Source: an uncultured Candidatus Rokubacteria bacterium (GTDB lineage: Bacteria > Methylomirabilota > Methylomirabilia > Rokubacteriales > CSP1-6). Taken from it: a stretch of DNA of 64,000 nt. The position numbers and the translations under genes were made by a program. The notes below the pieces were generated by a model, which was given only the letters and a program-made list of their open reading frames with translations, was not told the origin of the DNA and ran no database searches. This document shows positions 35,452 to 40,295 of the stretch, one piece after another. Numbering within the stretch: the first letter of the stretch is position 1; every line of letters begins with the position of its first letter. The stretch spans positions 192,001-256,000 of the forward strand of contig CAVVEU010000040.1 of NCBI GenBank assembly GCA_963747235.1, written 5' to 3'.

Positions 35452-36605
35452 CTATCTCCTAGGGCTGCCCGCCCAGTCGGTCCTAGGCGCGCAGGAGGTG
35501 ACCCCGAGCTCGGCGACGACTTCGCGGATGGCCTGCAGGGCGCCCGCGCATCTCGGTCTCCCCGAGCGCGCCGATGCAGCCGACACGGAAGCTGTCGGCC
35601 ACCGTGAGCTTGCCGGGGTAGATCACGTAGCCGCGCCGGGCCAGCCGGTCGTAGAAGGTCTCGAAGTGGAACTTCGGATCGGCGGGCATGCGGACCGTGA
35701 CGATGATCGGCGCCTGCAGCCGGTCCGGCAGCAGCGTCTCGAAGCCCATGCCGCGCAGGCCCTCCACCAGCAGCGCGCAGTTGCGGCGGTAGCGCGCGCC
35801 CCGGCCGGCCACCCCGCCCTCGGCCGTGTGCTGCTCCAGCGCGCGATCGAGCGCCGCGAGGACGTGGGTGGGCGGCGTGAAGCGCCACTGCCCGTTCTTC
35901 TCCATCGCGACCCACTGGTCGTGCAGGTCGAGGCTCAGCGACGGCGCCTGGCCGCGCGCCTCCTCCAGCGCCTCGCGCCGGATGATCGCGAAGCCCACGC
36001 CCGGAACGCCTTCGAGGCACTTGTTGGCGGAGGCCACCAGGGCGTCGAAGGGCACGCGCCGGGCGTCGAGCGGGATCGCGCCGAAGGCGCTCATCGCGTC
36101 GATCAGCAGGCGGCGCCGGTGCCGCGCCGTCACCGCCGCGATCTCCTCGACCGGGTTCAGCACGCCCGAGGTGGTCTCGCAGTGCACCACCACCACGTGC
36201 GTCACGGCGGGATCGCGCGCCAGCGCGGCGTCGAGCACCGCCGGGTCGGCCGGCTGATCCTCCGCCGTCTCCTGGACCACACAGGCCCGACGGTAGTACT
36301 CGCACATGCGGACCATGCGCCGTCCGTAGGCCCCGTTGACCAGCACCAGGAGCTTGCCCGCCGGCGGCACCAGCGTGCCGATCATGGCCTCGACAACGAA
36401 TGTGCCGCTGCCCTGCAGCGGGACACACACGTGGCTGCCGTCGCCCGTGCACCAGCTCGGTCAAACGCCGGCGCACCCGCGCGTTCATCGCGATGAACTC
36501 GCCGTCGCGCGAGCCCCAGTCGCGCAGCATCGCTTCCTTGGTGGCGCGCGTGGTGGTGAGCGGGCCCGGGGTCAGCAGGAACGGCTCGCGCGGCGTGGCG
36601 TCCAT
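35452..36605 (-). CDS. phnW: 2-aminoethylphosphonate:pyruvate transaminase (frameshifts)
   Basis: [72 protein letters not shown]. Confidence 0.93.
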
Positions 36606-36622
36606 GGCTTGGTCCTTTCGCC

Positions 36623-39053
36623 TCAGCTCTTCACGCGCAGGGAGCGGGGATCGTAGGGCGCGGCCAGGCTCGCCCGCGCCGGGATCCGGTCGCCCCCGAC
36701 GTCCAGCTCGAAGCGGCCGCCCGTGACGTAGGCTTCGTCCACCCCGCCCGGCTCCCGCACGTAGCCCATCGCCACCGCGCGGCCAAGAGTGTGGCCGAAG
36801 GCCGCGGAGGTCACCGTCCCGACCACGCGCCCGTCGCGCAGGATCGGCTCGTCGCCCCACGGGAGCGCCGCCGCGTCGTCGAGCACGAAGGTCAGCAGTC
36901 GCTTGGTCAGGATCCGCTCGCGCTGCTCGAGCAGCGCCTCCCGGCCCAGGAACGGCTTGTCGAGCCGCACCGCGAAGCCGAGCCCCGCTTCCCACGGCGT
37001 GTCGTCGATGGTGACTTCCCGGCCCCACGCCCGGTACGCCTTCTCCATGCGGAGCGAGTCGAGCGCGTAGTAGCCGGCGTCGCGCAGGCCCAGGTCGCGG
37101 CCCGCCTGCGCCAGCTCATCGTACACGAGGCCGGCCTGCTCGACCGGCACGTAGAGCTCCCAGCCGAGCTCGCCGACATAGGTCACGCGCGAGGCGCGCG
37201 CGGTCGCCTGGCCGATGGCGATCTCGCGAGAGGTCAGGAAGGGGAACGCGTCCGCGCCGAGATCGGCGTCGCTCACGCGCGCGAGCAGCTCGCGCGAGCG
37301 CGGACCCATCAGGCCGAGCACCGCGGAGGCGCCGGTCACGTCGGTGATCGTGGCGCGCGCCCCCGCGGGCAGGTGGCGCCGGATCCAGTCGCAGATCGCG
37401 CGTGCCCTGGGCGGACCCGGTCACGATGAGGTAGGCGTCGCCCGCGAGCCGCGTGACGGTCAGGTCGCTCTCGAAGCCGCCGCGCTCGTTCAGCATCGCG
37501 GTGTAGACCACCCGGCCGGGCGGCACCGCCACGTCGTTGGCGCAGAGGCGCTGCAGCACCGCCTCCGCGTCCGCGCCCTCGAGCCGGAGCTTGGCGAACG
37601 AGGTCTGGTCGAAGACGGCCACCGCCTCGCGCGCCGCCCGGTGCTCGGCGGCCGCATACGGGAACCAGTTCTGGCGACCGAAGGAGTACACCGCCTCCGG
37701 CGCGACACCCTCGGGCGCGAACCAGTTGGCGCGCTCCCAGCCCATCTTGGCCCCGAAGCAGGCGCGGCGCTCGCGCAGCCGCTCGTGGAGCGGCGAGCGG
37801 CGCAGCCCGCGCCCGCTCGTGAGCTCGCGGTTCGGGAACGCGATGTTGTAGTGCACGCCCACGATCTCGCTGACCCGCTCGCGCAGGAAGCGCCGGTTGC
37901 CGTGCAGCGGCGCGAAGCGCCGGATGTCGGCCGCCGAGAGATCCATCGGCGCGCTGGCCCTCGACGATCCACTCCGCGAGCGCCTTCCCCGCCCCACCCG
38001 CGGCGGCGATGCCGCCCGAGCAGAAGCCCGCGCCGACGTAGTAACGCCGCACCTCGGGCGCCTCGCCCAGGATGAAGTAGTTGTCGGGGGTGAAGGACTC
38101 GGGCCCGTTCAGGAACGTGCGCACCTCCGCGGTCTCGAGCGCGGGCAGCCGCACGAGCGCGTTGCGCATCAGGATGTCGAACTTGTCCCAGTCTTCCTTG
38201 AGCGTCCCGAACGAGAAGCCTTCCGGGATGCCGTCCGCGCCCCAGGGCTTGGCCCACGGATCGAAGCCGCCCATGAGGAGGCCGCCCACTTCCTCCTTCA
38301 CGTAGATGTGGCCGTCGGGATCGCGCAGCACCGGCAGGTCAGAGGCCACGCCCTGGATGGGCTGGGTGACGATGTACATGTGCTCGCAGGCGTGCAGCGG
38401 GATCGTCACGCCGCTCATGCGCCCGAGCTCGCGCGCCCACATGCCCGCGCAGTTGACCAGGATCTCGGTCGCGATGGACCCCGCCGAGGTCTCGACCCCG
38501 GTGACCGCGCCGTTCGCCACGTTGACGCCGGTGACCCTGACGCCCTCCATCAGCCGCGCCCCGCCCGCGCGGGCCCCGCGCGCCAGCGCCTGCGTGATGT
38601 CGGCCGGGTTGGCCTTGCCGTCGCCCGGGATCCACACCGCGCCGACCAGATCGTCGGTGCGCATCAGCGGGTAGCGGGCCGCCGCCTCGTCCAGGCCGAT
38701 CACGTGGGCCTCGACGCCGTAGGCGTGGCCATCGCGGCATTGCGCTTGAGCTGGATCATGCGCTCCGCGGTCCGGGCGACGCTGACGCTCCCGCAGCGCT
38801 TCCAGCCGGTGGCCTGGCCGGTCTCGGCCTCGAGGCGGCTGTAGAGATCCGCGCTGTAGCGGATCAGCCGGGTGAGATTGCTGGAGGATCGGAGCTGGCC
38901 GATCAGGCCCGCCGCGTGCCACGTGGTTCCGCCGGAGAGGCTTCCCTGCTCGAGCAGCACCACGTCGCGCCACCCGAGCTGCGTCAGGTGATAGGCGACG
39001 CTGGCGCCGACGATGCCGCCGCCTACGATGACGACGCGGGCGTGATCTGGCAA
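36623..39053 (-). CDS. GcvT-family FAD-dependent oxidoreductase (dimethylglycine/sarcosine dehydrogenase architecture; frameshifts)
   Basis: [70 protein letters not shown]. Confidence 0.9.
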
Positions 39054-39057
39054 GGAC

Positions 39058-40295
39058 CTACGAGACTTGGTTCAGGGCGAGGTCGAAGATGTCGAAGTTG
39101 CGGAGGCGGCGGTCGCCTGGGCACGCCCCTGGTCGGACGGTTCAGGAGCAGGGGCACGACCTGCTCGCTGATGCCACCGTGGGAGCGGAGCGGGGCGTCG
39201 AGGCCCGAGAGATCGTGGCGGGCCAGGCTCGTGCCGAGCACCACGTGGCGCTCGGACACCGCGACCAGGTCGCCCACGCGGTCGGGCGGCAGCTCGAAGC
39301 GGCGGCAGGCCGCGGCCCGGTCGAGCACGACCTCCATCCCGGCCAGCCCGGCGAGGCGCCGGCGAAGATCCTCCACGATCGCGCCCGTCCGGCAGGTAGA
39401 CGGTCGCGAAGGAGCCGAGCGCGCCGTGGTGCACGACGTAGGGATCGGTGATGGGCAGGATCACCCGCGCGCGGCCGGCGCCGACCCACCGATCGAGATG
39501 GTCCTGGAGGTAGATGACCCGCGGCCGGCCCGCGGCGTCGGTCTTGGCGTTCATGCCGTGGTCGGCGGTGATGGCGAGCGTGGCGCCGAGGCCGTCCAGC
39601 TTCGCGTAGTAGCCGTCCATCATGCCGTAGAACTCGTTGGCGTCCGCCGAGCCGGGCGGGTGCTTGTGCTGCACGTAGTCGGTGGTGGAGAGGTACATGA
39701 TGTCCGGGCGCACCGACTCCATCAGCTTCACGCCCGCCGCGAACACGAACTCGGAGAGATCGGCGCTGTACACCGAGGGCAGCGGCAGGCCCACCAGCTC
39801 GAGCCCGTCCGCCACGCCGTGCTCGGCCTCCGTGGTCTCGTCGGCCTTCTCGGCCGAGAAGCAGACGCCGCGCATCTCGTGGCCCAGCAGCCGCCGCAGC
39901 TTGTCCTTCGCGGTCACCACCGCGAGCCGCGCGCCTTCGCGGGCGAACGCGGCCAGGATCGTCCCGCAGCGCAGGTAGCGGGGGTCGTTCATCATGACCT
40001 CCGCGTTGGCGTCGCGATCGAAGAAGTAGTTGCCGCAGATGCCGTGCGCCGAGGGCGGCACGCCGGTCACGATGGAGAGATTGTTGGGATTCGTGAAGCT
40101 CGGCACCACGCAGTCGGCCAGGCGATCGGTCCCGCCCGGCAGCGCCGCGGCCAGGTACGGCATCGCACCCGCCGCGATGGCGCGCCGGATGTAGTCCGGC
40201 TCGCTGCCGTCCACGCACACCACGACCAGGGGGCGGTCCGGCCAGGCGTAGCGCCGGCCGTTCACCGTGATGGGGGCTCCACCGGGAGTCGTCAT
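39058..40295 (-). CDS. phnA: Phosphonoacetate hydrolase (frameshifts near the 3' end)
   Basis: [69 protein letters not shown]. Confidence 0.93.

Follow-up and report, generated by a model that had tools for sequence, protein, structure and literature searches.

The DNA analysed here is a window of 64,000 nt from the Candidatus Rokubacteria contig CAVVEU010000040.1, and all coordinates given below are positions within this window. Its minus strand carries a three-gene cluster in which the gene of a four-domain flavoprotein (abbreviated F in gene orders) lies between two genes of 2-aminoethylphosphonate (AEP) catabolism. The first gene, phnA, encodes phosphonoacetate hydrolase (40295..39058, with ATG at 40295 and the stop at 39060-39058). 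It is followed by the flavoprotein gene (39053..36623, about 809 codons, stop at 36625-36623), which combines the domains DAO, FAO_M, GCV_T and GCV_T_C and starts with TTG at 39053, where orthologues have GTG, and by phnW for 2-aminoethylphosphonate--pyruvate transaminase (36605..35452, with ATG at 36605 and the stop at 35454-35452). The intergenic gaps comprise 4 nt between phnA and the flavoprotein gene (39057-39054) and 17 nt between the latter and phnW (36622-36606). The original prediction, made from the same sequence, had described three co-oriented genes with just these gaps, and its figures proved exact once the frames were followed across the junctions.

That prediction had also described an enzyme of about 810 residues binding flavin adenine dinucleotide (FAD) and folate. 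The domains and the length stand, whereas no such open reading frame (ORF) exists in the assembled sequence at 35452-40295, where the two longest listed ORFs, of 545 and 569 aa, run partly outside the coding frame. The window has a G+C content of 72% with many spurious ORFs, and a frame plot of third-position G+C (GC3) showed the coding frame shifting several times within each of the three genes. Compared with the intact orthologous locus L002 (91% nt identity), the three genes are broken by seven single-base indels, one deletion and six insertions. The deletion lies near 38725 in the flavoprotein gene, and the insertions near 39387 and 39122 (phnA), 37955 and 37392 (flavoprotein gene), and 36444 and 35542 (phnW); the original prediction made no mention of these breaks. 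The full-length flavoprotein frame is open in 15 of the 20 other genomes of the window's genus (g1), and the two other few-contig assemblies of the genus that we examined (G013, G008) are broken at other places. Frame segmentation of the whole window likewise yielded many short segments: a CoA-transferase III profile matches three consecutive pieces in three frames, and similar splitting affects a thiolase, an HMGL/LeuA-type gene and an ABC ATPase (frame-broken stretches include 25046-26224, 22085-23105, 26733-27631 and 32615-33481). Same-strand frame switches amount to 8.4-13.2 per 10 kb in three contigs of the window's own genome (G000; 42 contigs, 88% complete) versus 4.7 pooled over 22 loci of relatives, which makes the rate of this assembly 2-3 times theirs. 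Furthermore, the substitutions relative to L002 fall mostly at third codon positions (157 of 213 in the flavoprotein gene, 67 of 90 in phnW; 74%). Based on the open orthologues, the genome-wide frame breaks and the third-position substitutions, we consider the seven indels most likely to be assembly errors and the three genes intact in the organism; ORF-based reading of this genome calls for frameshift-tolerant methods.

The identities of the flanking genes were established by profile searches. The phnA piece of the window matches Pfam Phosphodiest and scores 472.2 bits against TIGR02335, above the equivalog cut-off of 407.55, and a same-genus orthologue (L007) reaches 615.5 bits. The phnW piece, scanned with Pfam only, matches Aminotran_5, and its orthologue in L002 exceeds the cut-offs of NF010006 (543.4 bits, cut-off 296), TIGR02326 (483.1, cut-off 400.8) and TIGR03301 (481.2, cut-off 360.8). 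The flavoprotein was recovered on four frame pieces, with DAO profile positions 1-108 at 38703-39071, DAO 85-353 at 37339-39057, FAO_M and GCV_T 1-118 at 37119-38108, and GCV_T 114-255 with GCV_T_C at 36626-37420. An intact frame of 817 codons is present in the orthologues L002, L003, L006 and L007, whose precomputed Pfam domains agree, and in the NCBIfam scan the flavoprotein orthologue stayed below every equivalog cut-off.

The nearest solved structures are the dimethylglycine dehydrogenases (DMGDH) of rat (4PAB/4P9S) and human (5L46), at 527-518 bits, and the dimethylglycine oxidase (DMGO) of Arthrobacter globiformis (1PJ5, 3GSI), at 418 bits, with the matches spanning nearly the whole protein. 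The covalent FAD ligand of DMGO, His48, aligns to the histidine of the motif GTTWHAAG, located in the window piece 38703-39071, and its equivalent is found in 96 of 97 aligned relatives, the remaining one having a gap. The dyad residues His225 and Tyr259 are aligned with identical residues, each retained in 97/97 relatives. The same full conservation was observed for Asp552 of the DMGO folate site, which aligns to the aspartate of the motif FESDLTV; this residue, pinpointed by comparing 1PJ5 with 3GSI, in which alanine replaces the aspartate, presumably acts in the tetrahydrofolate (THF) step. PMC5082570 describes the His/Tyr dyad, an internal cavity and the folate site as common to the DMGDH family. 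Judged by its domain order, FAD histidine, dyad and folate-site aspartate, the flavoprotein is by sequence a member of the four-domain family of DMGDH, sarcosine dehydrogenase (SARDH) and DMGO. N-demethylation is the established chemistry of DMGDH and DMGO, and every characterised four-domain enzyme that we matched is such an N-demethylase. Public annotations of the orthologues are generic ('FAD-dependent oxidoreductase', 'GcvT family protein', '4-methylaminobutanoate oxidase').

To delineate the genomic setting, flavoprotein match coordinates were compared with PhnA matches across 251 genomes of the phylum Methylomirabilota, tallies that take in the unpublished genomes G229 for the flavoprotein and G228, G229 and G108 for PhnA, none of whose individual loci enters the analysis. 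PhnA exceeds its cut-off in 120 of the 251 genomes, and the flavoprotein lies less than 2.5 kb from a PhnA equivalog in 15 other genomes of g1, eight of g15, six of g27 and one each of g28 and g17. Of 18 further genomes drawn from the genus, a DNA search showed 16 to hold the complete cluster, split over two contigs in one of them (G017); the same search gave no cluster match in G006 and only 622 nt, at a contig end, in G016. Gene order varies between lineages: phnA-phnY-F-phnW in g27 (PhnY at 815.4 bits, cut-off 635.65, with PhnS2 two genes on), phnA-F-phnW-phnX-ABC in g15 (PhnX at 350.6 bits, cut-off 220) and F-phnW-phnX-ABC in g28, where ABC denotes an ATP-binding cassette transporter. Two clusters contain a single-domain DAO oxidoreductase of 420-422 aa. 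In g12 (G111, L036 8239-9504) it lies between phnA and phnW, giving phnA-DAO-phnW, and in g17 (G167, L050 5768-7027) it adjoins the four-domain flavoprotein, giving phnA-F-DAO. The best NCBIfam match of both is N-methyl-L-tryptophan oxidase, below the cut-off, and both may be Pbf-like. The g12 order is the arrangement that PMC10590968 describes for Pbf enzymes acting on N-methyl-AEP, a parallel that counts in favour of the demethylase reading proposed below. In a quick IQ-TREE phylogeny of 39 rows the g1, g15, g27, g28 and g54 copies form one clade (SH-aLRT 100).

Two further paralogues are associated with phosphonate-type genes. A paralogue of 45-46% identity (family f4), which occupies a separate long branch in the same tree, follows a PhnW-like and a PhnA-like gene in the order PhnW-like > PhnA-like > F at three NCBIfam-checked loci, with the same ORF pattern at two more. 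The PhnW-like protein of this triad scores 383-398 bits against TIGR03301 (cut-off 360.8), and the PhnA relative, a 393-aa Phosphodiest protein, only about 170 bits against TIGR02335 (cut-off 407.55; L022-L025, L027); it may cleave a different phosphonate. On its flanks the triad has an HpnL-like membrane protein, a pair of D-Ala-D-Ala-ligase-like ATP-grasp genes, a radical SAM gene of the KamA family, and LLM oxidoreductases. The other paralogue is encoded directly downstream of phnS2-phnT2-phnU2 in g24 (L057), g40 (L058) and g26 (L059), with all three transporter genes over their NCBIfam cut-offs; NCBIfam names PhnS2T2U2 as an AEP transporter, itself only 'putative'. Another paralogue, of family f7 (L072), is located between genes of the homocysteine S-methyltransferase and MtmB families, which we read as a betaine or dimethylglycine setting. 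As a separate observation, a group of flavoproteins at 59-64% identity unlinked to phn genes (L044, L045, L068) repeatedly neighbours a phosphotriesterase-family (PF02126) gene in g16, g19 and g11.

Outside the phylum, 79 loci were retrieved at 46-64% identity, 17 of which carry phnW, phnA, phnX, phnY or phnS2/U2 within flanks of up to 7 kb, with the partners over NCBIfam cut-offs in those scanned. Such partners exceeded the cut-offs in Mesorhizobium album VK24D (phnW-phnA-phnY-F, contiguous), a Steroidobacteraceae metagenome-assembled genome (MAG; phnA-phnY-F), Ensifer sp. R-19 (phnS2T2U2, then F), an uncultured bacterium (phnX..phnW-F), Thalassobium sp. R2A62 and a Roseobacter. On pSymB of Sinorhizobium meliloti 1021 the orthologue lies 2.9 kb from phnW-phnA-phnY-phnS2T2U2. 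Mesorhizobium, Sinorhizobium, Ensifer and Shinella commonly carry orthologues with 78-85% identity to the Mesorhizobium protein, under generic or automatic names only, and in Ensifer, Shinella, Roseobacter and Thalassobium the flavoprotein gene is directly preceded by a DeoR regulator. Linkage of the flavoprotein or a close relative to phnW, phnA, phnY, phnX or phnS2T2U2 thus occurs in several Methylomirabilota genera, Alpha- and Gammaproteobacteria and Verrucomicrobia. Conservation of the phn linkage, which the original prediction had singled out for checking, is much wider than expected; a lack of such conservation in relatives, which would have refuted that prediction, is thus not what the survey showed.

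We analysed the distribution of this linkage on a FastTree phylogeny of 97 rows, comprising 26 phylum rows (the 39 less 13 near-duplicates) and 71 full-length external rows. The label 'phn-linked' requires 11 changes versus a mean of 25.6 for shuffled labels, with none of 500 shuffles as low, and a clade of 37 rows (local support 97) gathers 19 of the 30 linked rows together with 17 unlinked and one unlabelled. Because kin share labels, this shows clustering of the label and not independent events. In the alignment, 13 columns split 18 phn-linked from 49 unlinked sequences, among them Lys153, Tyr668 and Arg684 (L002 numbering); Lys153, in the motif GDGKANP, and Arg684 are each present in 18/18 linked and 0/49 unlinked sequences.

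Two side observations concern external loci. A fused gene for a Na+/Pi cotransporter with a PhoU domain adjoins phnWAY clusters in three proteobacterial loci (L118 948-2699, L140 3302-5074, L077 9415-11094). In Shinella kummerowiae (L100 9545-13456) a second four-domain DMGDH-like gene and a Rieske/Ring_hydroxyl_A oxygenase stand beside the flavoprotein orthologue, a gene set that could serve stepwise demethylation of a quaternary amine.

Taken together, we propose that the flavoprotein is a THF-dependent N-demethylase of N-methylated AEP that feeds PhnW, a reading to which we assign a probability of roughly 0.5. The enzyme would oxidise an N-methyl group of monomethyl-AEP and probably dimethyl-AEP, or of a very close N-methyl aminophosphonate, and pass the one-carbon (C1) unit via its GcvT-like domain to tetrahydrofolate, yielding AEP, or the next lower methyl-AEP, and 5,10-methylene-THF. 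AEP would then be converted to phosphonoacetaldehyde by PhnW, which needs a primary amine, and phosphate would be released by PhnX or by PhnY and PhnA. Since the sites of both half-reactions are retained and the genomic partners are AEP enzymes and putative AEP transporters, N-demethylation of methyl-AEP appears to be the most economical reading. The original prediction had arrived at the same activity, a demethylase of methyl-AEP capturing C1 units; the conserved residues and the recurrent linkage now stand behind it, whereas its chemistry, that is substrate, product and use of THF, is still inferred. We regard the demethylase interpretation as plausible and as strengthened by the comparative genomic data.

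Several observations weigh against this proposal. Neither G149 (g15, 95% complete; phnA-F-ABC) nor G167 (82% complete) has a PhnW over the cut-off, so that AEP would have no transaminase there. The g54 copy (L048, 77% identity), a group of 59-66% identity in g11, g12, g14, g16 and g19, and the copies of Pandoraea and Paraburkholderia (62-63% identity) are not linked to phn genes. In Rhizobiaceae and Rhodobacteraceae the flavoprotein gene forms its own unit with the DeoR regulator, 2-3 kb from the phn genes, and in 10 annotated external loci folD, purU or other C1-folate genes were not found beside it. Within the genus itself PhnY exceeds its cut-off in 0/21 genomes and PhnX in 1/21. Finally, N-methyl-AEP already has a known answer in PbfB, PbfC and PbfD, which oxidise it to phosphonoacetaldehyde and methylamine; a demethylase is therefore not required by present knowledge.

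The downstream gap deserves closer description. The original prediction had AEP degraded via PhnW, PhnY and PhnA, a route that is incomplete in the window's genus and, in G149 and G167, lacks a PhnW over the cut-off. The highest scores in the genome of the window itself are 210.6 bits for PhnY (TIGR03250; cut-off 635.65) and 49.4 bits for PhnX (TIGR01422; cut-off 220); this genome being 88% complete and frame-broken, the genus-wide result carries more weight. Profile searches of the genus's genomes found no dedicated enzyme for the conversion of phosphonoacetaldehyde to phosphonoacetate; generic aldehyde dehydrogenases with scores of 210-295 bits against TIGR03250 are candidates for this step. 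We considered the flavoprotein as a substitute for PhnY, which is absent here and whose usual place the gene occupies, and ruled this out, as both genes occur side by side in g27, M. album, the Steroidobacteraceae MAG and S. meliloti.

Among the alternatives, the one that survives best, though we regard it as unlikely, is that the flavoprotein serves the catabolism of choline and glycine betaine as an ordinary dehydrogenase of dimethylglycine or sarcosine, with its adjacency to phn genes resulting from shared regulation, a downstream role (for example on betaine from trimethyl-AEP) or inheritance. The best solved matches are indeed DMGDH and DMGO with all catalytic residues identical, the orthologues are annotated only generically, phn linkage is missing in several close relatives (L048, L085, L086, L088), and the flavoprotein gene of Shinella is adjoined by a second DMGDH-like gene and a Rieske oxygenase. 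Against these points, phn linkage is seen repeatedly, across three paralogue lineages, several classes and phyla and differing gene orders, and the betaine-type context belongs to a different paralogue (L072). The Pfam matches of the neighbours in the window and in same-phylum relatives include no oxygenase family, in a survey that held no search aimed at TmpA/TmpB.

It is rather improbable that the flavoprotein performs the task of PbfB, PbfC and PbfD, oxidising the C-N bond on the ethylphosphonate side of N-methyl-AEP or AEP to phosphonoacetaldehyde, with the GcvT-like domain being structural or serving another use. Such an activity would agree with the single-domain DAO enzyme taking the same slot in g12 (L036), and the clusters of G149 and G167 devoid of PhnW would suit a bypass of PhnW like that reported for PbfD in PMC10590968. 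However, the folate-site aspartate is kept in 97/97 relatives within a GCV_T/GCV_T_C region conserved as a whole, phnW lies immediately downstream in most clusters of the main phnA-F lineage, and in G167 the flavoprotein and the DAO-only enzyme are encoded side by side, which suggests two different steps.

Action on another amine ranks next and is likewise improbable; N-methyl-1-hydroxy-AEP, N-methyl-aminomethylphosphonate, a phosphonate conjugate imported by a Dpp-type transporter and a non-phosphonate amine would come into question. This reading draws on the Dpp/Opp-type ABC transporter encoded on the minus strand at 28809..34549, which by Pfam comprises two oligo_HPY ATPases (34549-33509 and 33481-32615, the second one frame-broken), SBP_bac_5 fragments (~32293-30758) and two permeases (30606-29815 and 29741-28809). 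The adjacency of this transporter is kept in g1, g15 and g28 (after the cluster in L051, L052, L064 and L065), and it is a possible uptake system for the cluster, yet its type is that of peptide, opine or nickel import and not that of a known AEP transporter. A substrate other than methyl-AEP would also be in line with the low score of the PhnA relative in the f4 triad and with a genus pathway devoid of PhnY and nearly always of PhnX. The recurrent partners are nonetheless PhnW, PhnA, PhnY and PhnX equivalogs and the putative AEP transporter family PhnS2T2U2, and AEP is the known substrate of the partner enzymes, in agreement with PMC10590968. Decay of the cluster into pseudogenes with seven real frameshifts, a matter separate from the function of the enzyme family, is very improbable: seven frameshifts within 4.8 kb and the missing PhnY and PhnX of the genus would fit it, but the genes hold zero in-frame stops, and the third-position substitutions, the frame breaks throughout window and genome and the open frames of relatives, with G013 and G008 broken elsewhere, all speak against it.

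The remaining surroundings of the cluster are as follows. Directly 3' of phnW, a YpfJ-type putative neutral zinc metallopeptidase is encoded at 34552..35451 on the minus strand (PF04228, 329 bits), in the slot that PhnX takes in g15 and g28 (L051, L064, L065). Upstream and co-oriented on the minus strand, Pfam identified a GT4 glycosyltransferase (41386-40292), whose stop codon is overlapped by the ATG of phnA as ATGA, and an Acetyltransf_6 GNAT gene (42538-41552). The synteny of this pair is common to g15 only (L051, L052), and its tie to phosphonates is putative at most. A biosynthetic role of the cluster in phosphonate metabolism was ruled out, as the window's own genome has no phosphoenolpyruvate (PEP) mutase over the cut-off (best 149.8 versus 319.55 bits). 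About 14 kb from the phn cluster, a gene of the isocitrate-lyase/PEP-mutase superfamily (54329-55069, minus strand) scores 149.8 bits against TIGR02320 (cut-off 319.55) and is probably not a true PEP mutase. Elsewhere in the window, a DNA polymerase III alpha-type gene (47917-52973, minus strand; 976-aa piece) contains an Intein_splicing match of 64 bits at residues 745-874 and is preceded by a weak match to the impB/mucB/samB family, and this region may be an ImuB-DnaE2-like cassette with an intein.

Extending the proposed demethylase to all its relatives, a picture that we advance tentatively, the data would describe a widespread unnamed family of THF-dependent N-methyl-aminophosphonate demethylases, found in organisms as different as soil Methylomirabilota, Rhizobiaceae (S. 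meliloti 1021 among them) and roseobacters. These enzymes would convert di- and monomethyl-AEP stepwise to AEP and save the methyl carbons as folate C1 units, three paralogue lineages having been recruited separately. In the window's genus, such a route would end in PhnA without PhnY or PhnX and would imply a still-unknown phosphonoacetaldehyde-oxidising enzyme.

Methylated aminophosphonates occur naturally and are beyond the reach of PhnW; direct oxidation by the small Pbf flavoenzymes is the one solution described so far. If correct, the demethylase would constitute a second, chemically different entry to the hydrolytic AEP pathways, in which the methyl carbon is recovered instead of being released as methylamine, so that one substrate would yield phosphorus, nitrogen and C1 units. 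Hundreds of genomes contain this gene under generic annotation only, among them that of S. meliloti, the model rhizobium where the PhnW/PhnY/PhnA pathway was reportedly first elucidated, and the proposal would assign it a function. Since the cluster occurs in cultured strains, the proposal is open to direct testing. The wide occurrence of PhnA in Methylomirabilota (120/251 genomes) bears on the question of who mineralises soil phosphonates.

In the literature, PF01266 enzymes are described as oxidising N-methyl-AEP to phosphonoacetaldehyde (PMC10590968). In the searched texts of PMC10590968, PMC12366243, PMC13576164, PMC8154272 and the review PMC10574752, GcvT, folate and demethylation are absent and dimethylglycine figures only among outgroups. 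The text of the AEP-transporter paper PMC8316502 contains no mention of GcvT, dimethylglycine, FAD, sarcosine, aminomethyltransferase or N-methyl. Full-text searches, whose coverage leaves out most subscription journals, returned no paper tying a GcvT- or DMGDH-type enzyme to AEP clusters, and the name 'PbfE' was not found in any phosphonate paper searched in this way. The 260 PF01266 proteins from AEP clusters listed in the supplement of PMC10590968, which lay outside this literature check, might include four-domain entries. The view that the accessory Pbf enzymes differ from the flavoprotein, put forward in the original prediction, agrees with the searched texts of the Pbf papers, which mention no GcvT or folate enzyme.

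Compared with known systems, the flavoprotein is closest to DMGDH and DMGO, with which it shares the four-domain architecture, a near full-length match and identical FAD histidine, His/Tyr dyad and folate-site aspartate. It differs from them in residing in AEP catabolic clusters and not with betaine or choline genes, and in the 13 columns that mark phn-linked sequences. A further relative is 4-methylaminobutanoate oxidase (formaldehyde-forming), a DMGDH-family N-demethylase of a non-glycine amine whose name is automatically assigned to some orthologues; its nicotine-pathway context is absent here. TmpA and TmpB provide another route for N-methylated AEP. These non-haem-iron oxygenases cleave the C-P bond of trimethyl-AEP and leave glycine betaine, and the route is not known to involve demethylation or PhnW, PhnA or PhnX. 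Among the Pfam matches of the annotated neighbours, in which no search was aimed at TmpA/TmpB, we found no oxygenase.

The PbfB, PbfC and PbfD enzymes appear to be single-domain proteins. According to PMC10590968 they resemble the flavoprotein in having a PF01266 flavin domain, in being embedded in phnWX or phnWYA clusters and in offering N-methyl-AEP an ancillary entry to the hydrolytic pathway, and they yield phosphonoacetaldehyde and methylamine, thereby bypassing PhnW. Compared with the Pbf enzymes as they are described there, the window flavoprotein adds FAO_M, GCV_T and GCV_T_C and is predicted to form AEP and a folate-bound C1 unit; these extra folate domains argue for a product other than the phosphonoacetaldehyde of the Pbf enzymes.

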